A DNA stretch of 64,000 bases from a virus (IMGVR_UViG_3300037524_002067:32001-96000), one strand, 5' to 3'; counted from the stretch's first letter, positions 4,031 through 51,937 are shown. A program made the numbers and translations. The notes: generated by a model not told the origin, from the sequence alone.

Positions 4031-4137
4031 AGCTATAAATATACATCTTTTTTAAATAAAAATCAAATTATTTATATAGTCTTTATGTTGACCATCGAGA
4101 CAATTTTTCAACTATGTATATTTAAAAAACACATAGT

Positions 4138-4884
4138 ATGAAAAAAGAACTAACCGAAGAACAAAAAGAGTTACGCAGAGCATATAAAAGAAAGTGGGAA
4201 AAAGAAAAAAAAGAAAAAATGAGTCCAGAAGAAAGGGAAGTCAGAAGAATTTATATAAACAATTGGAAAAAAGAAAAAAATAAAAAATTAACTCCAGAAG
4301 AGAAAACTAATCGTAAAGAATATCAAGAAAAATGGCGCAAAGAAAACAGGGAACATCTCGCTCAATGGCATCGTGATTATAGAAAGAAAAATCCAGAATC
4401 CAATAAGATAAACACTAAAAACTATCGAAAAAATAACCCAGAAAAATCCAAACAGAGCACTAAGAAATACAAAGATCGCAACAAAGATAAAGTAGAAGCC
4501 TATAGAAAAAAATACAAAACCAGAAAAAATGAATTGCAGAAAATAAAAAAAACAACCGATCCGCTATTCGCTCTTTCAACTAAAATTAGACAAACTATTC
4601 TAAAGTCTTTGGGGAGAAAAACAAAAGGTAGTTCCAGAACAGAAGAAATTTTAGGTTGTTCGTTCTCTGAATTTAAAAAATACATTGAGTCAAAATTTCA
4701 ACCCTGGATGTCATGGGATAATCGTGGCAAATATAATGGAGAATTAAATTACGGATGGGATCTTGATCATATTATGCCTTTAGCCTCTGCAAAAACAGAA
4801 AAAGAAATTATTGCCCTAAATCACCATACAAATTTTCAGCCACTTTGCAGCAAAATAAACCGAGATATAAAACGAAACAATTAA
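4138..4884 (+). CDS. HNH-type homing endonuclease with basic repeat N-terminus
   Basis: WDLDHIMPLAS...LNHHTNFQPLCSKIN motif; inserted against the local gene orientation. Confidence 0.7.
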   Translation: MKKELTEEQKELRRAYKRKWEKEKKEKMSPEEREVRRIYINNWKKEKNKKLTPEEKTNRKEYQEKWRKENREHLAQWHRDYRKKNPESNKINTKNYRKNNPEKSKQSTKKYKDRNKDKVEAYRKKYKTRKNELQKIKKTTDPLFALSTKIRQTILKSLGRKTKGSSRTEEILGCSFSEFKKYIESKFQPWMSWDNRGKYNGELNYGWDLDHIMPLASAKTEKEIIALNHHTNFQPLCSKINRDIKRNN

Positions 4885-8488: not shown

Positions 8489-9136
8489 AAAATTTTTCAA
8501 TAAGTTTAAAGAACGTTTTCTTTTGTGTTGCAAATATATAAACTCTTTGCGCAATTTCAAAACGTTTTTTTCAAAAAACTTAAATTTTTTTATAAGCATT
8601 TGATTATCAACCTTTGTTTTTTATCTAGACAAAATCTAGACGTTATAAATAACATGAAATGGGAAGCCAGTCTTCCTACACGGCTGGGTAAAGCAAGTAC
8701 ATTTAGACATTACTGTCGCCTTGGATTTGCCCCGCCCTGGGTTCGAACCAGAATTTAACAAACACACTTCAATATTTTATAAAATAGAACTAATGAATGG
8801 TATGGGGAGATGTTGAATCAAGACTTATGCCCACTCACCTCAGCATTACCTGTAAGTAGAGATTGGAGTTAACCAATTAACCTTTTACCTGTTCTCAATT
8901 GCGGCTCTCTAAGCATCAAACAGGAATTGCACCACTTTCAATAGTTCATTTTCAATATTCAAAGAACAAAACTAAGTGTGGGATTCGATTTTTATATCCC
9001 TACCCACATTTCTTATGTTTCATCTGACTAAAAGCAGGAAACAAATGGTCGATTAGTTTTTTACGATCTAACTTAGTTTCTAAACCCAAGGGTTATTGTT
9101 GAGTTATACGCAAAGATATTACAAAGGTTACAAAAA

Positions 9137-10048
9137 TCAAATATTTTTTTCATCCAAATCTTCATTTGAACCAAATTCATCATTGTCAATCAAATCAGAA
9201 TCCTCTAATATCATACCAATTTGTGGTTTTTCTTGTGGAACTTCAGTGGTATCTTTTTTTTCTACAACTGGTTTATCCTTTGAATCAAGTAAGATTAGGT
9301 TTTTAATGTGAGACAAAACCCTATCACCACTTTCTTTAAATCTTATATCTGCAAAACCTTTATCAACTTTTATAACAAAAGCCATATCGTCTATATATTT
9401 ACCAAGATATCTATGATCTTGCGAAGTCATTGCTTTTTCATCCAAACGTACCCAATCTCCATGTTTTAAATCTTTTAACAAAGATATTTTTTGAGTAGCC
9501 AAACGATTTTGGTAATAATTTCTAAAAAACTCTACCATAATTAGCTTACGATCATTAGAAAGAGGTTTTAATGGTTCGTCACTTTTTATTTCTTCTCTGT
9601 CCCACTTAGGACCTATCAACATAGCTGTAACACATATTTCTCCTATTGGACGAACATAATGCCATCCATCAATATGGGTCATATCATAATAAGCACCACC
9701 GTTTTCCAAAACAATTGTACATATTTTTGACGGTTCCTCAAGTCCTTTTCCATAACCAAGACCCATCTCATATTTTCCAGAAATTACATGCATAGCACTT
9801 GGCCAAGGATGCGGATGAAATAAAGCTTCTTCAGTTTTACATGCATGAATCCAATGTAAAAGCACTCTATAATTACCTATTTGAGCCCAAATGCGTTCTA
9901 CAATTGGCGGATGATAATCAATCATGATTGATTGCCAATTATTTGGGTCTTGTAAAAGCCCAAGCAAAACTTTATCTTCAATTTGTTGTAGTTTTTTTAT
10001 CATTTTTTTATTGTAACTTTGTGTCATAAATTTCGTATAAAGATACAA
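9137..10048 (-). CDS. cupin-like domain protein
   Basis: HPHPWPSAMHV...GWHYVRP. Confidence 0.5.
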   Translation of the reverse strand: MYLYTKFMTQSYNKKMIKKLQQIEDKVLLGLLQDPNNWQSIMIDYHPPIVERIWAQIGNYRVLLHWIHACKTEEALFHPHPWPSAMHVISGKYEMGLGYGKGLEEPSKICTIVLENGGAYYDMTHIDGWHYVRPIGEICVTAMLIGPKWDREEIKSDEPLKPLSNDRKLIMVEFFRNYYQNRLATQKISLLKDLKHGDWVRLDEKAMTSQDHRYLGKYIDDMAFVIKVDKGFADIRFKESGDRVLSHIKNLILLDSKDKPVVEKKDTTEVPQEKPQIGMILEDSDLIDNDEFGSNEDLDEKNI

Positions 10049-16209: not shown

Positions 16210-16233
16210 ACATACTGGGAAATTAAAAACTAG

Positions 16234-16318
16234 AAGCGGGGGTCAGATTCGAACTGACGTTCTCTTTCGAGTTAAAGGTTATGAGCCTTCGCTGGATCCA
16301 ACTCCAGTCGACCCCGCA
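16234..16318 (-). tRNA. tRNA-Met(CAT), initiator-like, long variable arm
   Basis: GCGGGG/CCCCGC acceptor with 1:72 mismatch, loop CTCATAA, GTTCGAATC T-loop. Confidence 0.7.
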
Positions 16319-16323
16319 ATTTG

Positions 16324-16468
16324 TTGCAATGGTTGGAATTGCACCAACTTTCTCTGACTTAGCGCCAGCGAGTTTTAGGTAGATAAATCCACAAACTACA
16401 AACACATATTACGTAATTCTATGTTTGCTAAAAGGATTCCATATAACCTTCTGTCTCTCTCCATTGCG
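16324..16468 (-). ncRNA. tRNA-like RNA with large internal insertion
   Basis: CGCAATG/CATTGCA acceptor, GTTGG-TGCAATT-CCAAC T-arm, 145 nt, no clear anticodon arm. Confidence 0.4.
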
Positions 16469-16481
16469 AGAGTTTGTTCTG

Positions 16482-16565
16482 TACCAGCGGTGGGACTCAA
16501 ACCCACAATACCACAGGGTATCCGCTTATGAGGCGGACGCAATTATCACATCTGCTCACACTGGC
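16482..16565 (-). tRNA. tRNA-Met/Ile2(CAT), long variable arm
   Basis: TCCGC-CTCATAA-GCGGA anticodon arm; GCCAGTG/CGCTGGT acceptor. Confidence 0.7.
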
Positions 16566-16606
16566 ATATTTATAGACACCATTATAATGTCTATAAATTT
16601 TTCTTG

Positions 16607-16689
16607 TTGAATAGACAGGATTTTAACCTGTGAACACGTTATGTGATCTGTGTTACACACAGACGGTTTTAACACTTACCTACTATCCA
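16607..16689 (-). tRNA. degenerate tRNA-Tyr(GTA)
   Basis: TGGATAG/CTATTCA acceptor, TCTGT-GTGTAAC-ACAGA arm, long variable arm, atypical T-loop. Confidence 0.45.
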
Positions 16690-17025
16690 TGACATGATTT
16701 CTCATTTACTAATACTGTTTCAATTAGATCGAGCGTTGCATGCCACGCCGAGAGAGTTCGTGTTTGGCGGATGTTATCTCACTCACAACTATCAACACTA
16801 TGTTTAGATGCTGGGATGTTTTGCATCCATCTTATCAATTACACTGAATGGTGAAGCACCAATTCCAGCATACTCAATATTTTCAAAACCATTTTCTTTG
16901 GTTATCAAAGACTCACTCTCGCTAATAGCTCCAGTAAATTTATCAAACCCTTTTTTGTTTTCAATCTTGCCAGTTGAAGGATTGTAATAAAATTAATTTT
17001 TACCTATTTATAATAAAACAATTTT

Positions 17026-17709
17026 ATGAAACCACTTTACACTACTAAAGAATTTAATTTAGCTAAATCTTTTGATAAATTACCTTGTGAATGCTATCAT
17101 TGTAAACAGCCATTTTTAATTTATAAAACTCGAATTGTTGATGTTTTAAGACCAAATAATAAAGTTAAAACAAAAGCAAAATATTGCTCAAAAGAATGCT
17201 CTTCAAAAGCTAGGAGTTTAAAAATAACCTATCAATGCCATCATTGCGGAAAGGAATGTGTTAAAAAAGCATCTCAAATCAAACTATCAAAATCAGGGTT
17301 TAATTTTTGTTCAAAACATTGCACATCTTCTTATCATATTAAACATAAAAACTACGGAACTAATCGTTCAAAACTAGAACAATGGATTGCTGAACAATTA
17401 ATTATAAAATATCCAGATCTTAATATTAAATACAACGATACTGAAACACTTAACGGATTAGAATTAGATATTTATATCCCATCCTTACAGATTGCTTTCG
17501 AATTAAATGGCGTTTTTCATTATGAGCCAATTTTTGGACAAGACAAACTTGACAAAACAATAAAAAAAGATAAGAACAAAATGAGCCTTTGTTTAGAAAA
17601 CAAAATTGATTTATGCATAATTGATACTACGTCACAAAAATATTTTAAAGAACATACTTCACATAAGTTTTTAGACATTATATTAAACATAATCCAACAG
17701 CGTTTATAA
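17026..17709 (+). CDS. zinc-finger plus DUF559/Vsr-like endonuclease (homing-type)
   Basis: several CxxC/YCS motifs; SKLE...LELDIYIPSLQIAFELNGVFHY. Confidence 0.7.
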   Translation: MKPLYTTKEFNLAKSFDKLPCECYHCKQPFLIYKTRIVDVLRPNNKVKTKAKYCSKECSSKARSLKITYQCHHCGKECVKKASQIKLSKSGFNFCSKHCTSSYHIKHKNYGTNRSKLEQWIAEQLIIKYPDLNIKYNDTETLNGLELDIYIPSLQIAFELNGVFHYEPIFGQDKLDKTIKKDKNKMSLCLENKIDLCIIDTTSQKYFKEHTSHKFLDIILNIIQQRL

Positions 17710-17871
17710 TTTATTGAATTGAATTCTTAAATCATGGATCTTTCTTTGATAATCTGAAACACTGATTTCTTTGGTGTTTGACGTTTTCTTCGTCAACTCA
17801 CTACGCATTTCATCTTCCAAAAATTTAATCCTCTCCTGAAGTTTTAACTTCTTCTTTTCTTGATTTACCAT
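17704..17871 (-). CDS. small coiled-coil protein
   Basis: 55 aa MVNQEKKKLKLQERIKFLEDEMRSELTKK... Confidence 0.45.
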   Translation of the reverse strand: MVNQEKKKLKLQERIKFLEDEMRSELTKKTSNTKEISVSDYQRKIHDLRIQFNKL

Positions 17872-18028
17872 CACGTTCTTTTTTTAGCTCATTAATTATT
17901 TCTTGTAACACAATTGCATGTCGAGCATACACAGTCATTTGTGCTTTTATTTTTTCTATATGATCTATGGTTGTTAATTTTGATTTTAATCTATAACCGT
18001 CTCCATCATCATTGTTTTGATTTTGCAT
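17825..18028 (-). CDS. hypothetical protein
   Basis: 67 aa ORF. Confidence 0.4.
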   Translation of the reverse strand: MQNQNNDDGDGYRLKSKLTTIDHIEKIKAQMTVYARHAIVLQEIINELKKERDGKSRKEEVKTSGED

Positions 18029-18228
18029 TTGTTTCTCTTTCTTCTTTCTACCGCATTGTTATAATCTACAACACACGTATCAATGTCATCTTCATATATA
18101 CGACATTTAATTTTTAAATTGCTTATTACATAAAACATTGACATAAACATCAAAGCTACAATAAGCGTTTTTTCCTTTTTTCAATTTCAATTTTTCATTT
18201 TTTTGTTTTTTTTTATTTGTTTTTCTTG

Positions 18229-18301
18229 AGCAGAAGAGGAGAATCGAACTCCCGTCCACGACTTGGCAAGCCATTGTAATAAGCCACTATACGACTTCTG
18301 C
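18229..18301 (-). tRNA. tRNA-Gly(GCC)
   Basis: cloverleaf, loop TTGCCAA, U73. Confidence 0.75.
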
Positions 18302-18375
18302 AGGAACAACCTCAGTCAACATTTTGCTACGAGTTACTGACGTAGTTTGGAGTTAACCTCTGGTTGCATTTTTTG

Positions 18376-18446
18376 AGCAAAGTATCGGATTCGAACCGCA
18401 CCCCGACATTGGAAGTGTCGTGCTCACCCTTCGAGCTCTACCTTGC
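18376..18446 (-). tRNA. tRNA-Gly(TCC)
   Basis: GACA-CTTCCAA-TGTC arm, GCTC/GAGC D-stem, U73; overlaps the HNH stop codon. Confidence 0.7.
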
Positions 18447-19059
18447 ATTTATTTATGTTTCTATTTCTTCCTCCGTGTGTATCTAAAGTCGCATTACAAT
18501 TTGGACATAATATTCTTAAATTTTCTAATCTATTATCGTTGTGAACGCCGTTTTCATGATCCAAAATTAAACTCATATGTGCACCATTCCATTCCTCCCC
18601 TTGCCCACACATTTCACATTTATTTTGTTTCAACCCCTCCCTATATAATCTATTTTTTAAAGATACAGTGTTGTTATAGGTTGAATTTTTAATTAATACA
18701 TTTTTTAAATCTATTTTTTTACTAAAAATAACTTGTTCTCCTTTATAATCAAAATGAGAAATATCAACCTCATATAAATTTATGTATTTTATAACTGTTT
18801 TACGATTCCCGTGCCCATCATTTAATTGTAATTTTCTAACAGCATCAGAATAACTTCTTGAATTTTTTATTATTTCAATAAATTCTTCTTTTACATATCT
18901 TTTGCTCCTCAAGTTTAATTTTAACTCTTTTGCTTTGTGTTTTACTGAATCTTTACTTCTATTAAGATTAACCATACAATAATTGACCCCGTATTCAACA
19001 TAATTAGAAATAACAAACTCAATTTCTTTTTCACTCCATTTTTTTGGTATTTTTTTCAT
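18424..19059 (-). CDS. HNH homing endonuclease
   Basis: CEMCG...LILDHENGVHNDNRLENLRILCPNCNA. Confidence 0.85.
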   Translation of the reverse strand: MKKIPKKWSEKEIEFVISNYVEYGVNYCMVNLNRSKDSVKHKAKELKLNLRSKRYVKEEFIEIIKNSRSYSDAVRKLQLNDGHGNRKTVIKYINLYEVDISHFDYKGEQVIFSKKIDLKNVLIKNSTYNNTVSLKNRLYREGLKQNKCEMCGQGEEWNGAHMSLILDHENGVHNDNRLENLRILCPNCNATLDTHGGRNRNINKCKVELEG

Positions 19060-19120
19060 TGCTCTTTACTTTTATTATAAATATTGCCAAAAAAAGCAAA
19101 GTGCAATAAAAATGTTTTTG

Positions 19121-19203
19121 AGCGAGTTGGGGTAGTCGAAACCCCATATATGCATTGGAAGTGCATCATAATACGCCTTTAAGCTCCGTTATACTAAACT
19201 CGC
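19121..19203 (-). tRNA. tRNA-Gly(TCC), expanded D-loop
   Basis: ATGCA-CTTCCAA-TGCAT arm; GCGAGTT/AACTCGC acceptor, U73. Confidence 0.7.
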
Positions 19204-19456
19204 AGTTTACACATTTTCCTTTAATTTTCAGAGGGCGGCAATGTGTTAGCCTTTCTGCTACTCTTTATAAAACACATCCTGCATATTCGTCCCTAAGGAT
19301 AATGTTATTTTGCAGTGCATCCCCTTAAAGGAATGACGGAGGATATCCGTTTCTTGTGCTTCAATTGGTATGGGCATTGTAAAAAACAAGACTACAAACC
19401 CATCTTTACAGCGTTACACATCTACCCGTAGCTAGGTCACAGACATGGCGCAGTCG

Positions 19457-19575
19457 TGGGGAGAGCTAGACTCGAACTAGCATAGCCATTTAAGGCAGCG
19501 TGGTTACGACCACACAATGCTTACCGTACCGAGCTTCGATGATCAGTCGAAAAGCGTGTACATTGCCACCTCCCC
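19457..19575 (-). tRNA. tRNA-Tyr(GTA)-like RNA with greatly expanded D-region
   Basis: GGGGAGG/TCTCCCC acceptor, A73, T-arm GCTAG-TTCGAGT-CTAGC, long variable arm, GTA in an irregular loop; 119 nt. Confidence 0.5.
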
Positions 19576-19601
19576 AAATAATTTTTTTGATTTAAATACG
19601 A

Positions 19602-20063
19602 TTAATCGTCTTTTTTGCTGTTAGCGTATTTAACGCCCATTATCGTTCCAATAATACTGAAACTGTTTGTAAGCAAGATGCTAAACATATTGCTCCATGT
19701 TGATTCTATGATTTTTACCTCATAACCTTTTACAAGAGCTAGAACATATAACCCTGTTGTAATTAATCCAACTCCAAGTATAATCCCAAGAGCAACTTTT
19801 ACAATTTGACCAACCAATTGATTTTGAGTTTTCTTTTGTAAAACTTCAAGTTCATGAAGCGCATCTTCTTTTTCTTGAGCGTTTTTTTGGCTTTGCTCCA
19901 AATGCCACTTGTTTATTCTTCCAACACTTGTGCCAAGTTCACGAGCAACAGCAAATTGATTTTCAACATCTTTACCATTAAGTTTCCCTGTTCTTAAATA
20001 CTCTTCATAAAGCTTTATTTTGTCAGGTGTAAATTCATTGCCAGATGTTTCTTCTTTTGCCAT
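19602..20063 (-). CDS. two-TM membrane protein
   Basis: start reassigned to MAKEE (TATTTATA upstream); two C-terminal hydrophobic helices. Confidence 0.65.
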   Translation of the reverse strand: MAKEETSGNEFTPDKIKLYEEYLRTGKLNGKDVENQFAVARELGTSVGRINKWHLEQSQKNAQEKEDALHELEVLQKKTQNQLVGQIVKVALGIILGVGLITTGLYVLALVKGYEVKIIESTWSNMFSILLTNSFSIIGTIMGVKYANSKKDD

Positions 20064-20135
20064 TGTTCGTTGTTTTTTTACTATTATAAATAATAACAAA
20101 AAAACTTCGGGCACAGGTTTTTAAAAAATAATTTG

Positions 20136-20221
20136 TGGAAATGACGGGACTCGAACCCGCATTAGAACTTTCGTCCGTCCTGATTGCAAATCAGGTGCCT
20201 AACCAATTAGACTACATCCCC
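20136..20221 (-). tRNA. tRNA-Ala(TGC), long variable arm
   Basis: G3:U70 pair, CCTGA-TTTGCAA-TCAGG arm. Confidence 0.75.
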
Positions 20222-20226
20222 ATTTG

Positions 20227-20300
20227 TGGAGGTAAACGGATTCGAACCGATGACCCCCTGCGTGCAAGGCAGGTGCTCTAGCCAGCTGAGCTATACCCCC
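20227..20300 (-). tRNA. tRNA-Ala(TGC)
   Basis: canonical cloverleaf, G3:U70, loop CTTGCAC. Confidence 0.92.
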
Positions 20301-20421
20301 AATTTAAAAAAATATGGCCTGGCATTGTGTTGATCAACCATGTATATCTCTTGTATACACAGCCAAGTTCGCCAATTTGTGTTACCGTAAAGAGAATGAA
20401 TAGGTAACCACCATATTTTTT

Positions 20422-20946
20422 TTATTTCCACATTCCACCTGAATTCAATCTTTCGATTTCTTTTTCAAGTTTCTTTTGTTTTTTCTTTTCAATGAAATCA
20501 TCAAATTCTTTTAAAAGAGATTCTGGAATCTCAATTCCTTTATCTGAAAATTCTTTCAAAATCTCTTCTCTTGTAAAAGTGTGCTCAACAATTCCATCTG
20601 TCCACTGATCACGCCATAAACCCCAACCTCTTTTTCCAACCAACAAAGATTTCATGATGTTTGGATGTCTTGTAATGATTGGTTTTCCACCACCATACTG
20701 ACCATTTTCAAATTTTCTGAAACAGTTTTTTACTTCTGGACCATTCACATCAAACTCTATTTCTTTATCCACTTGTGAACCACAAAACGTTATCAATCCT
20801 TTTCGATTGATATCTAAGAAAAATTTAAACATCTTGTTGAAATTATCGGAATACTTCTGAAGTTTTCTGTCTAATTGTGTTCCAATTTCTTTTTTTCTTT
20901 GCTCAATTCTTTTGAGTCTTTCATTGGTTAGCTTCTCGCTCCCCAT
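20422..20946 (-). CDS. hypothetical protein
   Basis: start reassigned to MGSEK because the track start lies inside tRNA-Tyr. Confidence 0.6.
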   Translation of the reverse strand: MGSEKLTNERLKRIEQRKKEIGTQLDRKLQKYSDNFNKMFKFFLDINRKGLITFCGSQVDKEIEFDVNGPEVKNCFRKFENGQYGGGKPIITRHPNIMKSLLVGKRGWGLWRDQWTDGIVEHTFTREEILKEFSDKGIEIPESLLKEFDDFIEKKKQKKLEKEIERLNSGGMWK

Positions 20947-20988
20947 CGCTCTTTCTCGCCTTTCATAGATTTTGTTTTTAATTGTTTG

Positions 20989-21070
20989 TTGGGGTGATCG
21001 GATTCGAACCGACTCAGCCAAGGCAACAGTTTTACAGACTGTCCTAACTCTCCAGCGTTAGCGCACCCCA
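20989..21070 (-). tRNA. tRNA-Tyr(GTA)
   Basis: ACAGT-CTGTAAA-CTGT arm, long variable arm, GGTTCGAATCC. Confidence 0.75.
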
Positions 21071-21078
21071 ATTTATTC

Positions 21079-21156
21079 TGGTGGGATAGAAGGGACTTGA
21101 ACCCTATGCGGTTGAGTTTTACAGACCCTCCGACTCTATTGCCTTGGCATTATCCC
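21079..21156 (-). tRNA. tRNA-Tyr(GTA), atypical, encoded CCA
   Basis: loop CTGTAAA, GGGATA/TATCCC acceptor, ACCA end. Confidence 0.55.
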
Positions 21157-21275
21157 AGTTGTAATTTTTGTCTAGGTTTTCTTCCTAACAATTGCTTTTA
21201 GAAGCTGACACATCCTCTGACGTGCCATCCCATGTACTTAGGGTAGCCTTTCAGCAACTTCTAAACTTTTTAATG

Positions 21276-21362
21276 CGGGACTGAAGGGAGTCGAACCCTC
21301 TACGAGATTTTCATCTGCACCACATAGACAGTGTGGCATACCAGCCGTTATACGCCAGCCCC
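21276..21362 (-). tRNA. tRNA-Asp(GTC), long variable arm
   Basis: CCACA-CTGTCTA-TGTGG arm, G73. Confidence 0.75.
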
Positions 21363-21393
21363 AATTTGATTTTTATCTAGGTTTTCTCCTAGT

Positions 21394-21469
21394 TGGCAGT
21401 GCATACGGGGGTCGAACCCGCTCCTCAACCGCAGACAACGGCGCATCTTAACCATTTGACCTATGCACT
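21394..21469 (-). tRNA. tRNA-Asp(GTC)
   Basis: loop TTGTCTG, GCCA end. Confidence 0.75.
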
Positions 21470-21480
21470 ATTTTTATTCT

Positions 21481-21551
21481 TGTCATCAAGGCTGGATTTC
21501 CACCAACAACCTCCCTGTGCACGGGACTCTTAGATGTTGAGCTACTTGATG
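21481..21551 (-). tRNA. degenerate tRNA-like RNA (anticodon uncertain)
   Basis: CATCAAG/CTTGATG acceptor, TAGCTCA D-start, TCCC-GTGCACA-GGGA arm. Confidence 0.4.
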
Positions 21552-21645
21552 AAGTATGATGGTAATTGTGAAGCTATGTTTTTCGATTGGAAGTCAAATG
21601 CCCTAACGGGCTAGAAGTAAGCAAACACATGGCCATCAATAAGTA

Positions 21646-21723
21646 CGCTGCAGTGGGATTTTCACCCTCGGTTACATCTCATTCCTCACGTGGAATGTAT
21701 CTTAAAAGTTAGACGACACAGCG
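21646..21723 (-). tRNA. degenerate tRNA-like RNA (anticodon uncertain)
   Basis: CGCTGTG/TGCAGCG acceptor, CATTCC/GGAATG arm, GGGTGAAAATCCC T-arm. Confidence 0.35.
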
Positions 21724-21802
21724 ATTTAATTTCCTACGGGGTTGAAACTTGCGTATGAAGAGCGACTTCACAGAGACAAATAACAACTCACCCGTTTATG
21801 TG

Positions 21803-21876
21803 TCGAGTAGACTGGAATCGAACCAGCTAACTGATGCTTCCAGGGCACCCGTGCTTATAACCTTAGTCACTACTCG
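21803..21876 (-). tRNA. tRNA-Pro(TGG)
   Basis: C1:G72, A73, GGTGC-CCTGGAA-GCATC arm (C at position 33). Confidence 0.65.
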
Positions 21877-22508
21877 TTTTTTTTATTATTTTTACCAGCA
21901 TAAGTTTTTGTTTGACTGTGACAATTAGGACAAAGAAATCTTAAATTTTCTATTCTATTATCGTTATTCACCCCATTCTTATGATCAAGTTGTAATACTA
22001 TTTTTTCATTCATCCACTCTCCTCTATTTTTGCATTTTTCACATGCATATTCTAATAATTCTTCTTTTAACAATCTTCTTTTTAAAGCGTGTTGACTGTA
22101 ACTTGAATTTATGATTAATATCTCATTTATATCTTTTCCTTTTTGTCCAGTTCTTTCTCTTCTAATGCCTTTAAATTTTTGACCTTCAAAATGAGAATTA
22201 TCTAAGTTGTTTTCAACAATTCTTTTTTTTATAGTTCTTATATTAGAACCTGTTGTTTTAATTTTAAATCCTCTACATATTTCAGAATATGTTGTTGATG
22301 TTTTTACCAATTCTTTTAATTTAGTTACATCATATTCTCTTCCAAGTCTTATTTTAAAATGTTTTAAATTTAAATTTAATTCTAATGCTATTTCTTTTAT
22401 TTTATTAAAAGTATAACCATTGTTTTTTAAACTCATTTTAGAACATACCTCACTCAAAGAAGTACTATTTTTTATTGCACGTTTTAATTTATCTTTATCT
22501 ATTTTCAT
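21870..22508 (-). CDS. HNH homing endonuclease
   Basis: LQLDHKNGVNNDNRIENLRFLCPNCHSQT. Confidence 0.85.
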   Translation of the reverse strand: MKIDKDKLKRAIKNSTSLSEVCSKMSLKNNGYTFNKIKEIALELNLNLKHFKIRLGREYDVTKLKELVKTSTTYSEICRGFKIKTTGSNIRTIKKRIVENNLDNSHFEGQKFKGIRRERTGQKGKDINEILIINSSYSQHALKRRLLKEELLEYACEKCKNRGEWMNEKIVLQLDHKNGVNNDNRIENLRFLCPNCHSQTKTYAGKNNKKNE

Positions 22509-22634
22509 ATATTTTATTTATAAAAAAATACGAAAAATAAAAGTATTAAACAAATTATTTCAATCAATTAGACCAACTCACGCAACTCCTGATATGAAGT
22601 TTTTGATTTAAAACAAAAGCAACAAAACAAATCG

Positions 22635-22707
22635 TCAGGGTGACAGGGGTTGAACCTGCGACCTCCTGGTCCCAAACCAGGCGCTCTCCCAACTGAGCTA
22701 CACCCTG
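22635..22707 (-). tRNA. tRNA-Pro(TGG)
   Basis: canonical cloverleaf CAGGGTGTAGCTCAG...TTTGGGA. Confidence 0.92.
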
Positions 22708-37852: not shown

Positions 37853-38458
37853 TTACTTTTCGTGAATAGCTTCATACAACTGAATTTGTTTGAACAGACT
37901 ATATTTAATGTTTTCATAAATAGACTCTTGTTCTGGAAAAAGTTTTCGAGCCATTTTTAACATCACAACGGTTTTTTCTTTGGATTCCTTAATATATTCC
38001 TTTTGCTTCTCTAATTTCATACCTTTAAGCATGGTGGAAATATTATGATCTCTATCAAGACCTTTACACACAGATACAACATGACACATACCCATTTCTT
38101 TATAGTAAATTTCGTCTGGCACTCTAACTCCTTCTCTTACTTTGCTTATTTTCCAAACATAACCCGCAACAGTCTTACCAAACATCTCTTCAATCGTTTG
38201 AATTGTTACACCTTTGTCTTCTACAATATCATGCAAGAAAATAACTACAAATGTATCTTCTGGAGAAATCAGTTGATCACATATTGTCCTACAATAAAGA
38301 GCCTGTGTCACCTGATGTGAAAACTCATGTTGACCATCCTTTCGAAGGCCGCTATGAAGTTGCTCAGCAAAATTCATAGCTTTTACGGCTCTGTAAAAAC
38401 ATTTTCCAATAAGCCAATACCTAATGGCAATTTTATTTTTTTCGTAATTTGGTCTCAT
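37853..38458 (-). CDS. SpoT/Mesh1-like HD hydrolase (small alarmone hydrolase)
   Basis: FAEQLHSGLRKDG...H...LHDIVED...K..DR.HN. Confidence 0.75.
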   Translation of the reverse strand: MRPNYEKNKIAIRYWLIGKCFYRAVKAMNFAEQLHSGLRKDGQHEFSHQVTQALYCRTICDQLISPEDTFVVIFLHDIVEDKGVTIQTIEEMFGKTVAGYVWKISKVREGVRVPDEIYYKEMGMCHVVSVCKGLDRDHNISTMLKGMKLEKQKEYIKESKEKTVVMLKMARKLFPEQESIYENIKYSLFKQIQLYEAIHEK

Positions 38459-42682: not shown

Positions 42683-42684
42683 CG

Positions 42685-42769
42685 CACGTCGAAGAGGATT
42701 CGAACCCCTGTGAGACCTAAGTCTGCTGGTTTTGGAGACCAGTGCTATCAACCACTCTGCCATCGACGT
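42685..42769 (-). tRNA. tRNA-Trp(CCA) with long variable arm
   Basis: CTGGT-CTCCAAA-ACCAG arm, A1:U72, G73, variable stem AGAC/GTCT. Confidence 0.8.
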
Positions 42770-42847
42770 ATATAGATGTTTAAAATTACGGATTAGAATT
42801 TTTAAAGCCTCGGTCTTGTCGCCGCTTCCTTAATCTATCACATCTTG

Positions 42848-43071
42848 TTACCAGTACGGGAATCGAACCCGCATAATTGTTGTGCACGTGCTTTGGAAAA
42901 CTCGCTTCCTTACTTTGTCGTAGACATTTCAGTGCATCCGTAACCATGCAGCACGTTACTCACACCATATTTGCTCAGACTATGCCTTCAACGCTTTCTG
43001 TAGCAAGTCAACAATTTCTCTTTCGAGAACCCTTCGTTTTAGGTTTGTCTTTCCATTTAGACGAACTGGTA
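42848..43071 (-). ncRNA. tRNA-like RNA with about 165-nt insertion in place of the anticodon arm
   Basis: TACCAGT/ACTGGTA acceptor, GTCT/AGAC D-arm, GCGGG-TTCGATT-CCCGT T-arm, AATTGTTG/CAACAATT closing stem. Confidence 0.6.
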
Positions 43072-43077
43072 ATTTTG

Positions 43078-43150
43078 CACGAGTGGCAGGCATCGAACCC
43101 GCAACCTTTGGTTTTGGAGACCACTACTCTACCAATTGAGCTACACTCGT
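43078..43150 (-). tRNA. tRNA-Trp(CCA)
   Basis: canonical cloverleaf, loop CTCCAAA, G73. Confidence 0.92.
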
Positions 43151-43153
43151 GTA

Positions 43154-43747
43154 TTATTTGTTTTTGCTTTTTAAATATCTTGTTTTTCTACTTGAGTTTT
43201 TGTTTTTAGACTTATATGTATCAAGTTGAGAATCACAATTAGGACAAACCAGCCTCAAATTTATTCTAAAATTATTGTAAGCGTTACCATCTATATGATC
43301 GAGAATAAAAACCAATCTAATGTTATTCCACTCGTTTTTTATACCACACACAGCGCATTTACAATTCTGTTCTAATAAAATGTGCTTTTTAATAAAGCTC
43401 ATATTCCTATCATGACAATACTCGTGTTGGTTATTTAAATATTTGGCATATATTTCTTTAGATTGATTTTCATAATAACAATCACGACTGCAAAAAGTTT
43501 GATCTGGGTGGGTGGTTAACTTTATATTTTTATCACACTCCTTACACTTAATTATTTTAGCTGTTCCTTTATTAGCTGGAACAAAATTATCTTTAAAATT
43601 CGCTCTTTTAGGAAGAATTATACCTAATTTTTTAGCCGCTTTTTTTATAGTTTCATCAGTAACTCCATACATTTTACCTATCTTTATATAAGATAGTTTT
43701 TTATCAAAAATTAATGTTGACAACTCTTCTTTGTTATAATTTTTCAT
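43154..43747 (-). CDS. HNH homing endonuclease
   Basis: CAVCG...ILDHIDGNAYNN...NLRLVCPNCDSQ. Confidence 0.85.
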   Translation of the reverse strand: MKNYNKEELSTLIFDKKLSYIKIGKMYGVTDETIKKAAKKLGIILPKRANFKDNFVPANKGTAKIIKCKECDKNIKLTTHPDQTFCSRDCYYENQSKEIYAKYLNNQHEYCHDRNMSFIKKHILLEQNCKCAVCGIKNEWNNIRLVFILDHIDGNAYNNFRINLRLVCPNCDSQLDTYKSKNKNSSRKTRYLKSKNK

Positions 43748-43844
43748 ATTCTTTTATTTAAATATAAAGAAAAATAACTCCAATTACTAATCAATTTAAA
43801 AAATAATCTATTAGTAATTTAAATAACTATTTCAAAGAACTTTG

Positions 43845-43921
43845 TGATCGCCACGGGAGTCGAACCCGTATGTGTCCAATTACTCTTTCAACTGCTTAGA
43901 AGGCAGAGGAGTTATGCGACC
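43845..43921 (-). tRNA. non-canonical tRNA-Arg(TCT) lacking a D-arm
   Basis: CTGC-CTTCTAA-GCAG arm only about 8 nt after the acceptor strand; normal T-arm. Confidence 0.6.
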
Positions 43922-43928
43922 TTTTTTG

Positions 43929-44005
43929 TGACCACCACGGGATTCGAACCCATATGCATCCACTTACTCTTTCAACGGTTTAGGAAACCGAGGAGATATG
44001 CGGCC
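43929..44005 (-). tRNA. non-canonical tRNA-Arg(CCT) lacking a D-arm
   Basis: CGGT-TTCCTAA-ACCG arm; same architecture as its neighbour. Confidence 0.6.
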
Positions 44006-44009
44006 ATTT

Positions 44010-44086
44010 GTGATTGATAATTGTGGAATCGAACCACTGAGTTTTTACACTCCGACACCTTGAGCTCAAGTCAATTTACCAATCAC
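44010..44086 (-). ncRNA. tRNA-like RNA with extended terminal stem
   Basis: GTGATTGGTAA/TTATCAATCAC stem, GTGG-TTCGATT-CCAC T-arm. Confidence 0.4.
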
Positions 44087-44090
44087 TTTG

Positions 44091-44162
44091 TAGTCCCACT
44101 AGGAATCGAACCTAGATAATTGGTTTAGAAAACCAAGGCTTTATCCATTAAGCTATGGGACC
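44091..44162 (-). tRNA. tRNA-Arg(TCT)
   Basis: canonical cloverleaf, TTGGT-TTTCTAA-ACCAA arm. Confidence 0.88.
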
Positions 44163-44240
44163 AAATTCTAATTAGTTAAAGTGGTTTTATGATGCCAATT
44201 AGTAATGCATCCTCATAACGGATTACCACAATCCTATTCG

Positions 44241-44322
44241 TGTTGAGGGGAGGATTCGAACCACCAGATGATCAGTACGTACTTAATCACCTTTTCCAAA
44301 CGCATGCTTATTTGACCTCAAC
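44241..44322 (-). tRNA. degenerate tRNA, possibly Arg(ACG)
   Basis: GTTGAGG/CCTCAAC acceptor, GGTTCGAATCC, GTACGTA in an irregular arm. Confidence 0.4.
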
Positions 44323-44326
44323 ATTG

Positions 44327-44417
44327 CAGAAGTGACGAGATTCGAACTCGTGCGCCGATTTTCACCGACCTATCAACTTTCCAGGCTGACCCCTTTCATC
44401 CACTTGGGTACACTTCT
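44327..44417 (-). tRNA. tRNA-Ser(GGA)
   Basis: loop CTGGAAA, long variable arm, G73. Confidence 0.88.
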
Positions 44418-44425
44418 ATGTTTTG

Positions 44426-44514
44426 CGGAGGCGGTGAGGATCGAACTCACGCAGCGGATTTCTCCGCCCTAACGGTTTAGCAAACCGTCCCCTTCACCAC
44501 TTGGGTACGCCTCC
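44426..44514 (-). tRNA. tRNA-Ser(GCT)
   Basis: loop TTGCTAA, long variable arm, G73. Confidence 0.9.
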
Positions 44515-44519
44515 AATTG

Positions 44520-44608
44520 AGGAGAGCATAGGATTCGAACCTAATGCGGGTCTTCCCCGCACCCTTTGTTTAGCAAACAAGGACTAGCCCAAGCCAGCAT
44601 TACTCTCC
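44520..44608 (-). tRNA. tRNA-Ser(GCT)
   Basis: loop TTGCTAA, long variable arm. Confidence 0.8.
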
Positions 44609-44688
44609 AATTTTATCTCCGCATTTTTGCGGAGATTACGATGTTTATTCACCGCACAAAAATAAAAAACAATACGTCAAAAAACTTT

Positions 44689-44774
44689 TGGCGGAAGATA
44701 TAGGAATCGAACCCTGCCCTTGCGGACCGCCCCATGCTTCAAACATGGTTGACCACCGATGGTCGCTACCTTCC
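44689..44774 (-). tRNA. atypical tRNA-Ser(TGA) with 8-bp acceptor stem
   Basis: GGAAGGTA/TATCTTCC, GACCA-TCGG-TGGTC D-arm, loop TTTGAAG, GCCA end. Confidence 0.7.
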
Positions 44775-44779
44775 AGTTG

Positions 44780-44864
44780 AGGAGAGTGTGAGATTCGAAC
44801 TCACGGACCCCGAAGGGCCTCCAGTTTTCAAGACTGGTGCAATAGACCACTCTGCCAACTCTCC
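44780..44864 (-). tRNA. tRNA-Ser(TGA)
   Basis: canonical, CCAGT-CTTGAAA-ACTGG arm. Confidence 0.92.
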
Positions 44865-48174: not shown

Positions 48175-48825
48175 TTATTCTAACAACTTATATTCATAAT
48201 AATCCCCCATTAACCACTTATCGCATTGTACCTGCTCAAACTTGCCACTGTTTAATATGGGATAAGTGTGTGCTAAATTTGCACTTCCAACTTTCTTTGG
48301 ATCCTTTTTATTAACAAATTTCCATCCATCATAGTAAATCATTTTTCCAACTTCTTTTTTTCTATAGAATCTGCAACCATCTTTGTAAAGTTGTATTACG
48401 TCTTCCAGGTATTTTTTCCAGGTATCAATCTCATATTGATAATACCACTCGAAATGTTCTCTCACTGATTTTAAAAAACTCTCCTCTCTTTGATTTCTTT
48501 GTTCAGCTATAGCATAACCGCCAATTTCAAACACAAACATTTCTCTTACTTTTTTCCATAATTCTTCTTTATCTTGTGGCTCATACCATAAAACTCCATG
48601 TAAAGCATCTTCCACCATCTCTTCTGGTTCCATACAATATATGTCAACTTTACTATTTGCAATGGTGTATACCCATTGACCTTTTTCATTGATATAGCTA
48701 TATGGTCCATCCCAATAACCAGCTTTCATCTCTGCAAATCGTGGAATGCCGCCAGATAATCTCATGTGCGATGTGCCTTCTGGATCTTCTTTTTGCAAAA
48801 TCTTTATAAACTCACCTGTTGTCAT
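48175..48825 (-). CDS. hypothetical protein
   Basis: 216 aa ORF. Confidence 0.6.
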   Translation of the reverse strand: MTTGEFIKILQKEDPEGTSHMRLSGGIPRFAEMKAGYWDGPYSYINEKGQWVYTIANSKVDIYCMEPEEMVEDALHGVLWYEPQDKEELWKKVREMFVFEIGGYAIAEQRNQREESFLKSVREHFEWYYQYEIDTWKKYLEDVIQLYKDGCRFYRKKEVGKMIYYDGWKFVNKKDPKKVGSANLAHTYPILNSGKFEQVQCDKWLMGDYYEYKLLE

Positions 48826-49270
48826 ATGCTGATTTTTTTTGATTAAACAATATTTTTGCTTCTTTAAGTTTTAACCTAGCTTCTTCAGTTTCAGAACGAA
48901 GAGTCTTGTATTTAGATCTCAATACGTCAATTTGTTGTTCAAGCGCAGATGGTTTAACTGAAACTTTAAACTCGTCTCCAGTGAATCTCCTGCGAATAAA
49001 CGATAATAGTGTTCTAATGGTTCGAAGATTTTGTTTCTTCTCGAAGTAATAGATTTTTCTGGCAAGCTTCTTTCTTGATGAAAGTGTAGATGGGTTAAAG
49101 TACACGTTCTCAAAAATTAAGTTGAGATCGCCTTCGACAACATATTCGCGTTGCGTACAGATTGTTTTTATTTTTTCTATTGCTGATTTTAAATTTTGAG
49201 ACACAGCTTCCTCTGTAAAGGTTTCTTTAATTAATTTTAAAGAATCACCTATTTGATCTTTTGTTTCCAT
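48812..49270 (-). CDS. hypothetical protein
   Basis: 152 aa ORF. Confidence 0.6.
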   Translation of the reverse strand: METKDQIGDSLKLIKETFTEEAVSQNLKSAIEKIKTICTQREYVVEGDLNLIFENVYFNPSTLSSRKKLARKIYYFEKKQNLRTIRTLLSFIRRRFTGDEFKVSVKPSALEQQIDVLRSKYKTLRSETEEARLKLKEAKILFNQKKSAYDNR

Positions 49271-49378
49271 AATGGTTAAAAATTTAATTGTTTGATTAAT
49301 AATTTAATTTGTCACTGATTGTATCAGCCTACATTATGGCGGATTTTCATTTATCTATTTCATAATTTTTATTTTTTG

Positions 49379-49471
49379 TGGGAACGTAGTCATCGAAGAC
49401 CTTGGACATATTTCATCCCGTTCCCTGGTGGAGAGCAACTCACTTAAGAATCTAACCTTTCGGCACTCTCC
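49379..49471 (-). ncRNA. two abutting mini-tRNA-like RNAs (49426-49471, 49379-49425)
   Basis: GGAGAGT/GCTCTCC-ACCA and GGGAACG/CGTTCCC-A acceptor stems, 46-47 nt each. Confidence 0.55.
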
Positions 49472-49480
49472 TTATTTTTG

Positions 49481-49552
49481 TGATCCATGTCGGGATCGAA
49501 CCGACGACCTTGGTTTTTAGAGAACCTCGCTCTGCCGCTGAGCTAATGGATC
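49481..49552 (-). tRNA. amber suppressor tRNA (CTA anticodon)
   Basis: canonical cloverleaf: GATCCAT/ATGGATC, GCTC/GAGC, GGTT-CTCTAAA-AACC, GTCGG-TTCGATC-CCGAC, A73. Confidence 0.9.
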
Positions 49553-49557
49553 ATTTG

Positions 49558-49652
49558 TGGGAGTGTGGTTATCGAAAACCTAGACTCATTACAGCCCACT
49601 CCCTGGTGGGAAATGTAGGATTTTAACCTACTACATCACTAAAGAATTTCCC
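49558..49652 (-). ncRNA. two abutting mini-tRNA-like RNAs (49604-49652, 49558-49603)
   Basis: GGGAAAT/ATTTCCC-ACCA with GTAGG-TTAAAAT-CCTAC T-arm; GGGAGTG/CACTCCC-A with GGTT-TTCGAT-AACC. Confidence 0.55.
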
Positions 49653-49659: not shown

Positions 49660-50028
49660 TTATTCTTCAAACTCTTTTTTTAATTTGAGGTATTGCTGTT
49701 TTCTCTGTTCTTTTTCACGTTGCTCTCTAATTTTTCTTTGTTCTTCTTCATATATTTCTCTCTTTTTTCTTTCTTCTTCCTCTGCTTTTTTTCGTTCTTC
49801 ATAAACACTGTCCAAATCTTGTGTTAAGCAACTTTCTTCAAAATATTCCTCTTCTGTGTATTCACCTCTGCAATATTTGTGATAAACAACCTTGAATGAA
49901 CCGTCTTCAAGCAAGTGTAATTCGCTTGGTTCTCCTCCATATTTAACAACACAATATTGCATTGCTCTTTTATAGATAGATCTTAAATCTGTTGTGATAT
50001 TATTTTCCACCAACAACCTCCTTTCCAT
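49660..50028 (-). CDS. hypothetical protein with charged coiled-coil tail
   Basis: ORF 49660..50118; start uncertain, probably near the end of the upstream gene. Confidence 0.55.
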   Translation of the reverse strand: MERRLLVENNITTDLRSIYKRAMQYCVVKYGGEPSELHLLEDGSFKVVYHKYCRGEYTEEEYFEESCLTQDLDSVYEERKKAEEEERKKREIYEEEQRKIREQREKEQRKQQYLKLKKEFEE

Positions 50029-50392
50029 GATATTGTTGAAACGCTGTGGTATATTCCCTGAAGGCGAGTGGAAGATTTGATACAAGTCTATTTGATTCCT
50101 CAGATGGTTCCAAGGCAATAGCTGTTAACTCGTGATCAAAATCTGGTTCAACAAATGATGAACATAAAATTCCTCTCGTGTGGGCTTTTAGTAAAAATTC
50201 GTTTAATGATTTTTCGTTATCGCAGGATAGGATAACAATGTGTCTGGACTTAAAGTACCATTCACTTTGAACAGCGTCGTGTTCTTTTTGAAATTGTTCA
50301 GCTGCATGCAAAGATTGTGCAGCTTGAGCGCCTGGGGCGATATCACGTCTTACGACTATGATTAGTTTCGATTTGTTATTAATCTACTTCAT
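50000..50392 (-). CDS. peptidyl-tRNA hydrolase type 2-like protein with in-frame UAG at codon 3
   Basis: ATG AAG TAG ATT...: MK*INNKSKLIIVVRRDIAPGAQAAQSLHAA...W...IVIL...EPD...LTAIALEP...LPL. Confidence 0.8.
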
Positions 50393-50928: not shown

Positions 50929-51876
50929 TCATACTTTTTTCAACCACAAATAATCATGACTGTTTTTTGTATCATAAAGGCAAAATTCAACTTCGTGTTT
51001 TGCAATTCTAAACCCAAAAGATTCTAATCTCAATATTTCATTTTTTATCTTTTGTTCAAAAAATAATTTATAGGTGTTATATTCCCGAAAAGTCAACATT
51101 TGAATATACTGATCATCAGATGACTTTTTAAACACATTTTTAGATAAGTGACCATCTGACAAAATATTTCTAAGTTGATTTTGTTTTCTCAATGAACCAT
51201 CCATTTCTATTGCTAAATGAGATTCAAAATAACAACCTTTTGGCATAACATCTATTGGTTTTCTTGGTGAACCAGGGTGCCATGGCACTGTTTCTATTTT
51301 TTGTCTCACAACAACAAAACCAAACTTAAAAAGCTCTCCATTAATTCTTTGACACTCTTCATAAACACTTCTGTTGTCTCCATAATGTTTTGAAGATGTC
51401 ATAAGATCTTTCATAACAGAAATATCGTTGTTTTCAAGATCCAACATTATTGGTTTTACACCAACTATAACACACACTTCTTTAAACTCTCTTATATAGT
51501 TTTCCACCTCTTCTTTCTTTGTTGGTAATTCTACGGTAAGATGTATTTCAAACGGAAGAGGAAACTGAGCCGCATCCTCTTTATTTTGGAGCTCTTGCCA
51601 ATATCTGGATTTTTTATCCATCATCTCTTCTATTTCTTCATGCGAAAAACCAAGATCATATGCAATGGAAATAGCTGACAATATTGTGTCAGATACTTCT
51701 TCTAAAATTTTATATTTATCTACAAAACGGTGATTGGTGGCGTATGCCGACACAAAAGGCAACACGGCCTTAGAAAGCTCACCTTGTTCTTCAGATACTT
51801 TTAGTGTTTTTTCTGCAAGACTTTTTTTATCACGAAGAGACAATGTCTGGATATAATCTAACAATTCTTTATTCAT
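50929..51876 (-). CDS. MazG-like nucleotide pyrophosphohydrolase domain protein
   Basis: LKVSEEQGELSKAV...EEVSD; start reassigned to MNKEL. Confidence 0.7.
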   Translation of the reverse strand: MNKELLDYIQTLSLRDKKSLAEKTLKVSEEQGELSKAVLPFVSAYATNHRFVDKYKILEEVSDTILSAISIAYDLGFSHEEIEEMMDKKSRYWQELQNKEDAAQFPLPFEIHLTVELPTKKEEVENYIREFKEVCVIVGVKPIMLDLENNDISVMKDLMTSSKHYGDNRSVYEECQRINGELFKFGFVVVRQKIETVPWHPGSPRKPIDVMPKGCYFESHLAIEMDGSLRKQNQLRNILSDGHLSKNVFKKSSDDQYIQMLTFREYNTYKLFFEQKIKNEILRLESFGFRIAKHEVEFCLYDTKNSHDYLWLKKV

Positions 51877-51937
51877 ATAACAAAGATAATAAAAAAAGGG
51901 GCATAAGCCCCTTTCGATAATAAAATTCAACTCTTAA

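Follow-up and report, generated by a model that had tools for sequence, protein, structure and literature searches.

Tandem anticodon-less mini-tRNA genes beside the amber-suppressor tRNA of related uncultured phages: a conserved family of putative acceptor-end mimics

Mimicry of tRNA is already known in several forms. Synthetic acceptor/T-arm minihelices, which serve as substrates of RNase P, the CCA-adding enzyme and synthetases, are laboratory constructs with a coaxial 7-bp acceptor stem and T-stem-loop, a discriminator base and an (R)CCA end. Bacterial RNase P cuts acceptor/T-arm hairpins correctly, and a tetraloop in place of the T-loop impairs the cutting (PMC11143913). The armless or truncated mitochondrial tRNAs of nematodes and mites (42-54 nt) are reported to have lost whole arms and kept the acceptor stem (PMC6158502, PMC12221289). 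The tmRNA TLD, mascRNA and viral 3' tRNA-like structures are reported to share acceptor/T-arm mimicry and processing by tRNA enzymes (PMC3985003).

Short structured phage RNAs in tandem are also known from conflicts with host defence. Phage pseudo-ToxI repeat arrays reportedly act as RNA decoys against ToxIN, as Blower et al. are said to have described in 2012, and phage RNA anti-CRISPRs are likewise said to have been described by Camara-Wilpert et al. in 2023. Such RNAs are cut into units and are proposed or shown to titrate a host defence protein; they copy the defence system's own RNA, in near-identical repeats. A tRNA-cluster conflict over the host tRNA pool is likewise represented by phage variant tRNAs which reportedly escape anticodon nucleases (cited in PMC12851939; T5 tRNA-Tyr, 10.1101/2023.03.15.532788); these are full, decoding tRNAs and replace the cleaved ones. 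According to the authors of the Cas12a3 study, variant viral tRNAs cannot evade tRNA-tail cleavage, and the viral means of resistance to tRNA-tail immunity is not known (PMC12851939).

The locus described here lies in a 154,343-base IMG/VR virus record (GC 0.33, CheckV completeness 59%), bases 32001-96000 of which form the window, the whole 64,000-nucleotide stretch that was analysed. The interval from the stop of a small ORF at 49660 to the following gene at 49270 contains five minus-strand RNA elements, namely an amber-suppressor tRNA(CUA) and four mini-tRNA units, U1 to U4 (Table 1). The preliminary description had proposed two head-to-tail pairs, four units of 46-49 nt, around the tRNA(CUA), and the coordinates obtained here agree with it. 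It was also right that all four units possess a 7-bp G-initiated acceptor stem and a discriminator A, that the encoded ACCA of U1 and U3 directly abuts G1 of U2 and U4, and that a full D plus anticodon arm is missing throughout. The T-arm-like hairpin, which had been recognised in three units, is in fact present in all four, each time beside the 3' acceptor strand.

Table 1. Elements of the RNA cluster and its flanking genes, with positions counted from the first base of the window
Feature	Position	Strand	Description	Support
U1, type I mini-tRNA	49604..49652	-	49 nt including encoded CCA; acceptor stem GGGAAAU/AUUUCCC (7 bp); 14-nt conserved linker UCUUUAGUGAUGUA; T-stem 5 bp, loop UUAAAAU, beside the 3' acceptor strand; tail A-CCA	folds; Rfam; homologues; model R2
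U2, type IV mini-tRNA	49555..49603	-	46 nt (49603-49558) plus CAA trailer; acceptor stem GGGAGUG/CACUCCC; 4-bp hairpin, loop GUAAUG; 4-bp T-like hairpin, loop UUCGAU; discriminator A	fold; model R2
tRNA(CUA)	49480..49552	-	canonical amber suppressor, core of the cluster, without encoded CCA	ARAGORN; Rfam RF00005, 61.1 bits
U3, type II mini-tRNA	49426..49471	-	46 nt including encoded CCA; acceptor stem GGAGAGU/GCUCUCC (7 bp, one G-U pair); GCC-GAAA-GGU hairpin with GNRA loop; T-like hairpin 5 bp, loop UUAAGU; tail A-CCA	fold; six homologues; model R1
U4, type IV mini-tRNA	49376..49425	-	47 nt (49425-49379) plus CAA trailer; acceptor stem GGGAACG/CGUUCCC; 4-bp hairpin, loop GAAAUAU; 4-bp T-like hairpin, loop UUCGAU; discriminator A	fold; model R1
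Pth2-like gene (PF01981)	50000..50392	-	upstream; TAG at codon 3	conserved neighbour; search anchor
Downstream conserved gene	48812..49270	-	152 aa; other edge of the syntenic RNA cluster	

The MFE folds of U1-U4 give the same three-way layout at -12.5 to -18.7 kcal/mol (U2 -18.7), with z-scores against dinucleotide shuffles of -2.1 for U1, -3.3 (-3.25) for U2, -3.3 for U3 and -2.7 for U4. In the predicted structures each mini-tRNA keeps the top half of a tRNA, that is a coaxial acceptor stem and T-like arm, together with discriminator A and a C-N-A tail, and has a short linker or a small, often GNRA-capped hairpin where the D and anticodon arms would be. The T-like stems comprise 4-5 bp and their loops 6-7 nt (UUAAAAU, UUCGAU, UUAAGU), so that acceptor and T-like stem add up to 12 bp in U1 and U3 and to 11 bp in U2 and U4. 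By sequence and fold, the units resemble an RNase P minihelix substrate in having an 11-12-bp stacked acceptor/T-stem, a T-loop and a 3' RCCA, the ACCA being encoded in U1 and U3. In contrast to the minihelices, the mini-tRNAs are natural genes, arranged in rows and conserved across phages, and they contain an extra conserved linker or GNRA-capped hairpin.

None of the four units is called as a tRNA by ARAGORN. U1 reaches 24.4 bits with the Rfam tRNA model RF00005, a score below the 29-bit gathering threshold and from an alignment that deletes both the D arm and the anticodon arm, and U2-U4 give no RF00005 match at E<=10. The hairpin loops of U2 and U4 (GUAAUG, GAAAUAU) are of unequal length and lack U33, that of U3 is a GAAA tetraloop, and a conserved 5-bp/7-nt anticodon arm was found in none of the units. 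Mitochondrial armless tRNAs of similar size keep the anticodon arm and decode, whereas the phage mini-tRNAs keep the T-arm and cannot decode. No tmRNA match was obtained for U1-U4 with ARAGORN or Rfam, and the units contain no ORF. Unlike the tRNA-like domains mentioned above, they are stand-alone tandem elements of 42-49 nt with no G3-U70, tag frame, attached larger RNA or Rfam match. The near-identical tandem repeats and toxin neighbour typical of ToxI-like arrays are also missing: the window units are only 55-72% alike, and Pfam searches of the cluster neighbours revealed no partner protein, toxin gene or transferase. Whereas pseudo-ToxI arrays and RNA anti-CRISPRs copy the RNA of the defence system, the mini-tRNAs, with their diverged types, would mimic the target tRNA.

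Bare 7-bp closing stems are common by chance, as 14 G-initiated, GC-rich examples occur in the window and about 9 in shuffles; chance does not account for the clustering, the tRNA-like details and the homologues. No further unit emerged when the 154-kb record was scanned strictly (GG start, discriminator A, two-hairpin three-way fold). The family covariance model R2, run over the 64 kb with filters off, gave the four units scores of 52, 50, 40 and 33 bits, and the best of the other matches had 17 bits. U1 scored 33.1 bits in this search, and U2, though outside the training set, 39.8 bits with an E-value of 3e-8 (rough, from a short calibration). Model R1, trained on the type III units of relatives only, picks up U4 (40.3 bits, E 2e-9) and U3 (33.6 bits, E 2e-7), the E-values again being rough owing to short calibration, and U1 weakly.

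ARAGORN identifies 37 tRNA genes in the 154-kb record, 37/37 on the minus strand, and the 36 others, also set among genes, have no such mini modules. The ordinary phage tRNAs (window 16233-22707 and 42684-44864, minus strand) are nearly all devoid of an encoded CCA, their trailers beginning with CAA, and for this reason the encoded ACCA of the mini-tRNAs stands out. In the same two regions, the Met, Ala, Asp and Trp anticodons each possess a second gene copy, which has a long extra arm and measures 85-89 nt. The 17-bit match, the best of R2 outside the mini-tRNAs, is a 78-nt tRNA-like element missed by ARAGORN (window 21079-21156, minus strand) just upstream of tRNA-Tyr, of the form GGGAUAA...UUAUCCC-ACCA with the ACCA encoded. 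Neither a CCA-adding enzyme nor RtcB was found in the 59%-complete record.

Orthologous loci were found by anchoring on the upstream Pth2-like gene (PF01981). A search of IMG/VR with the exact junction motif CCACCAGGGANNGGGNTG produced 50 matches, all by chance and with no closing stems, and a single-protein search for close Pth2 loci among viral contigs produced none. The 44 distant IMG/VR Pth2 loci (<=52% protein identity) often have a tRNA(CUA) nearby, with a mini unit only in L052. Closer relatives are the metagenome contigs L096-L103, with a Pth2 identity of 61-73%, and one further IMG/VR contig, L184, was found through the type II interior motif. The closest Pth2 homologues, P0002-P0005 (72-96% identical), are located on contigs outside the locus comparison. 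The shared gene order is NT5C, small ORF, MazG-like, small ORF, Pth2, RNA cluster and two to three conserved ORFs. Homologues of the 152-aa downstream gene, for which Pfam has no family, directly follow the cluster in L099, L052 and L184. Altogether, seven lineages of related uncultured phages, near-duplicates included (L100-102; L096-098), have mini-tRNAs next to their tRNA(CUA). The mini-tRNAs number one to six per locus and are arranged in rows of one to three, which flank the tRNA on one side or on both, unit number and order varying among relatives. A tRNA-Cys adjoins tRNA(CUA) in all relatives except L103, whose contig stops at tRNA(CUA).

Several other features of the neighbourhood deserve mention. 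The MazG-like gene of the conserved block beside the cluster is located at window 50929-51930 (minus strand), and a gene with an HD_4 domain (SpoT / small-alarmone-hydrolase type) at 38135-38380 (minus strand); both families have links to the turnover of (p)ppGpp or nucleotide pyrophosphates. Right after the RNA cluster a tiny reading frame, ATG AAA TAG, is found at window 49334-49363 (minus strand). Its ATG AAA opening is common to the window, L052 (~3846-3860), L184 (~9427-9441) and L099 (~4735-4746), and TAG follows within three codons in the window and in L099 (ATG AAA AAA TAG), and at codon 5 in L052 and L184. In L052 an insertion with a TnpB/OrfB-like protein (~4050-4500) splits the conserved downstream gene.

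The units fall into five sequence types (I-V) with conserved interiors and with stems that vary with compensation. Type I, to which U1 belongs, is characterized by the linker UCUUUAGUGAUGCA and the T-loop UUAAAAU; type II (as U3) by a GCC-GNAA-GGY hairpin and the loop UUAARU; type III, absent from the window, by a GUCA-GNAA-UGAC hairpin and the loop UUAAAU; and type IV (as U2 and U4) by a 4-5-bp hairpin with a 6-7-nt loop and the loop UUCGAU. Type V is represented only in L184 and L052. In order to avoid stem-based ascertainment, clusters were searched with the interior motifs alone, and the closing stems, which differ in sequence, then showed 7/7 pairs around most hits and 6/7 around a few. 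Within the type I linker, 11 of the 14 positions are invariant. Conserved unpaired parts of this kind argue for a specific partner or a tertiary fold. Two candidate pairings were rejected: the UAG within the type I linker (UUUAGUGAU) as a partner of the CUA anticodon, as the position varies (UAG, CAG, AAG) with the anticodon constant, and the resemblance of some 3' strands to the 16S anti-Shine-Dalgarno end (L184 GAUCACCUC), which is not kept among homologues.

The preliminary description had observed that the stems differ in sequence yet stay paired, and homologues in related phages extend this to covariation in all helices. Among eight type I sequences 97.9% of cells are paired and 6/12 pairs have changed on both sides; 0/500 shuffles match the observed pairing or covariation score, and slid partners are 55-72% paired. 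Type III (six sequences) is 100% paired, with 7/15 pairs changed on both sides (slid controls 41-58%), as is type II (six sequences), with 4/12 pairs changed on both sides (slid controls 39-47%). In the pooled set, 259/259 cells are paired and 12/15 pairs have changed on both sides, in a model-fitted alignment that leans towards structure. The covariation of types IV and V rests on four and two sequences, respectively; within the window, compensatory changes separate U2 from U4 at positions 5 and 6 of the acceptor stem, in the first hairpin and in the T-like stem.

Such small tRNA-like elements could also be decaying tRNA pseudogenes or repeat debris without function, either remnants of tRNA duplication or REP-/MITE-like palindromes. 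Their tRNA-derived look, the differing number and order of units between relatives and the narrow distribution agree with this, as does the 13-nt string GGUUAAAAUCC, which the T-arm of U1 shares with that of the phage tRNA-Tyr. When the mini-tRNAs were compared with the whole record by blastn-short, this string was the sole match and no parent tRNA was found. Absence of structural covariation in homologues had been named beforehand as the sign of simple decayed remnants, and covariation is present: in three helices, compensatory changes maintain 98-100% of the pairs from lineage to lineage. Contrary to decay, there is no variation in discriminator A, the GG start or C74, and the mini-tRNAs are no less conserved than the adjacent coding gene. 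Conserved interiors and variable, covarying termini are the reverse of transposon inverted repeats, and no other copy exists in the 154-kb record, in disagreement with REP or MITE elements. Decay is largely refuted by the covariation and is very improbable.

Identity between phages amounts to 68-89% for the mini-tRNAs, 51-75% for the Pth2 gene (DNA) and 63-90% for tRNA(CUA); U4 is 83% identical to L096 3077-3124. Judged by these values, the mini-tRNAs are at least as conserved as the neighbouring Pth2-like gene. At the level of predicted pairing, the compensatory changes demonstrate purifying selection for the top-half fold in several phage lineages, and there is little doubt that the units represent a real, selected family of structured RNAs.

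Considering their function, one possibility is that the mini-tRNAs are charged by a synthetase which reads only the acceptor end. As carriers they would deliver an amino acid to a non-ribosomal phage reaction; as enzyme ligands they would bind or regulate a tRNA enzyme, for example the adjacent Pth2-like hydrolase. The invariant discriminator A, the type-specific conserved acceptor stems and interiors, and the Pth2-like gene as a constant neighbour are consistent with such a role, and there is a precedent in the phage protein Mom, which uses Gly-tRNAGly outside translation, probably reading its 3' acceptor end (PMC13219725). However, all four window units have G-C or A-U at position 3:70. AlaRS identity resides in G3-U70 and GlyRS identity in U73/C2-G71; neither set was found in the window units, which thus possess no recognisable acceptor-stem identity. 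The acceptor stems covary freely within a type, which is unexpected for identity carriers, and Pfam found no transferase beside the cluster. We regard a carrier or ligand function as improbable.

The tails of the units follow a regular syntax. Discriminator A and C74 are present in 26/26 units and the GG start in the 25/25 with a correctly placed 5' end, and the tails of the 26 units are CCA (14), CAA (7), CUA (4) and CGC (1). After a CCA tail, G1 of the next element comes directly or one A later; after a CAA or CUA tail within a row, one pyrimidine precedes G1. The last mini-tRNA of a row ends in ACCA, after which, directly or one extra A later, a terminal element begins. This is a type IV unit in the window; of the two L096 rows, one closes with a type IV unit and the other with a tRNA(UUA) gene, and the rows of L099, L100-102 and L184 close with a full-size cloverleaf that bears a GNRA tetraloop (GCAA, GUAA, GAAA) on an anticodon stem of 7 bp.

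These GNRA-capped cloverleaves (L099:4146-4218, 4645-4713; L101:4031-4103, 4709-4781; L184:9211-9283, 9339-9411) have an anticodon stem of 5-7 bp and no anticodon, and sit where the window has type IV mini-tRNAs. Their homologue L096:2581-2652 has a normal 7-nt loop with the anticodon UUA (ochre suppressor). Types II and III look like a shortened form of the cloverleaf design, with an acceptor stem, a short GNRA-capped stem and a T-arm, so that the clade keeps a graded series of anticodon-less tRNA-like RNAs. A conserved RNA of ~140-165 nt, absent from the window, follows tRNA(CUA) in relatives (L096:~2826-2980; L099:~4391-4556; L101:~4273-4425, ~4427-4565; L184:~9006-9163). It consists of a tRNA-like acceptor stem and T-arm around a large insert, which in L096, L099 and the first L101 element contains ...AUC GCA UAA UAA.... 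Its 3' part gives a weak Rfam beta_tmRNA match (14.7 bits), and it might be a miniature tmRNA-like element.

The position of the mini-tRNAs may reflect a function in cis, as processing or stability modules of the suppressor-tRNA operon, a kind of tRNA-shaped 'punctuation'. They would recruit RNase P and RNase Z and free the suppressor tRNA, and in relatives its odd tRNA-like neighbours, from the mRNAs; they would set exact ends, or time or limit the release of a potentially harmful amber suppressor, the excised mini-tRNAs being by-products. In line with this, they were found only at the tRNA(CUA) cluster, on its flanks, in every lineage that has them, and they sit in the gaps that separate the tRNA from the stop of the upstream ORF on one side and from the following gene on the other. 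Terminator-like sites on the transcribed strand and convincing promoters are absent from the cluster, the last mini-tRNA of a row abuts G1 of the next element with ACCA, and RNase P accepts such hairpins (PMC11143913). On the other hand, the 36 other tRNAs of the record manage among genes without such modules, and rows of two or three different mini-tRNAs exceed the needs of punctuation. The loops and linkers are strongly conserved, the conservation equalling or surpassing that of the tRNA served, which suggests that the RNAs themselves matter. Location is best explained by a role in cis, multiplicity and loop conservation less well; on balance such a role is less likely than not, and about as likely as a decoy function.

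The explanation preferred here, tentatively and at somewhat less than even confidence, is that the units are conserved, phage-specific mini-tRNA genes which are processed and act in trans as acceptor-end mimics. Since the mini-tRNAs are located on the same strand as the flanking genes, with no terminator-like site in the cluster and with promoter-like sites not above shuffled expectation in the 2-kb region scanned, they would probably be part of one minus-strand transcript with the Pth2-like gene and tRNA(CUA). RNase P would cut this transcript at each G1. As the encoded ACCA abuts the next G1, that cut alone would leave a mature ACCA-3' end on U1 and U3. U2 and U4 would require RNase Z or exonucleases and the host CCA-adding enzyme, like the CCA-less tRNAs of the phage; completion is presumably left to host enzymes because the 59%-complete record shows no CCA-adding enzyme of its own. 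Processing is plausible, given the ACCA/G1 junctions and the ability of RNase P to cut acceptor/T-arm hairpins (PMC11143913).

In the most speculative step of the proposed trans mechanism, the released mini-tRNAs would take no part in decoding and would compete with real tRNAs for a factor that reads the acceptor stem, T-arm and CCA. Decoys for toxSAS, nucleotidyltransferase or GNAT toxins had been suggested in the preliminary description. The toxSAS enzymes and the MenT/AbiE toxins act on the CCA end. The most attractive target would be a host defence effector acting on tRNA 3' ends, namely Cas12a3-type tail nucleases, toxSAS pyrophosphokinases or MenT/AbiE nucleotidyltransferases. Phage variant tRNAs replace cleaved tRNAs, whereas the mini-tRNAs, having no anticodon, could only compete. 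A mimic or decoy acting in trans is favoured because (i) the loops and linkers are conserved as well as the stems; (ii) the units and their types outnumber the needs of processing; (iii) the mini-tRNAs are as conserved as the tRNA which they flank. Taken by itself, this trans-acting role is a possibility that may well fail. The more specific proposal, that the mini-tRNAs and the tetraloop-capped tRNA-like genes of the relatives form an RNA counter-defence of abundant, non-decoding top halves whose CCA ends soak up acceptor-end effectors (Cas12a3 tail cleavage, toxSAS pyrophosphorylation, MenT/AbiE nucleotidylation), is unlikely.

Several observations speak against a decoy. Only 14 of the 26 units encode CCA, and a general CCA-end decoy needs no five different conserved interiors. 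With a copy number as low as 1-6 per genome, a competitor would have to be very strongly expressed or very stable. For this phage, neither a tRNA-end toxin nor Cas12a3 nor a host is known. The restriction of the mini-tRNAs to the tRNA(CUA) cluster also means that a role in cis fits at least as well as a general decoy.

The distribution of the family was examined in several collections. Over 45 Pth2-bearing viral records, R2 detected mini-tRNAs in one, the record of L184, and in none of the nine records with at least 90% completeness among them. The type I motif gave 15 matches in IMG/VR, none of them real, and the type II motif 83, with L184 as the sole genuine case. Across 185,579 prokaryote species, each represented by one genome, the type I motif matched 13 times, with no closing stem or tRNA context. 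None of the cultured phages matches the locus. These results indicate a family confined to a narrow clade of large uncultured phages, so that a counter-defence of this kind, if it exists, is not a widespread one. A ClpB-like protein shares ~50% identity with its counterparts in the uncultured phages LR745206 and LR756502 (635-642 kb), and an OmpA-domain protein suggests a diderm host. No Rfam family fits the mini units. A candidate miniature phage RNase P RNA at G000:C1:15829-16122 (L204:1330-1623) gave no Rfam match at E<=1, RNase P families included, and was set aside. In the literature searched, no virus is described as having rows of natural mini-tRNA genes that stand alone and lack an anticodon. 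Judged by that literature and by Rfam, what is new here is such gene rows in a virus, and not tRNA mimicry as such.

In this phage lineage, only that part of a tRNA which is read by processing enzymes, EF-Tu, synthetases and acceptor-end toxins is kept under selection, in genes that are missed by gene finders. Should the mini-tRNAs prove to be decoys, they would constitute the first RNA-based response to immunity aimed at the universal CCA tail, and, as a counter-defence, the 'yet unknown means of resistance' raised in PMC12851939. If they are cis modules, a phage amber-suppressor tRNA would have a processing architecture dedicated to it. In both cases they offer compact natural substrates (42-49 nt) for the minimal needs of RNase P, RNase Z and the CCA-adding enzyme.
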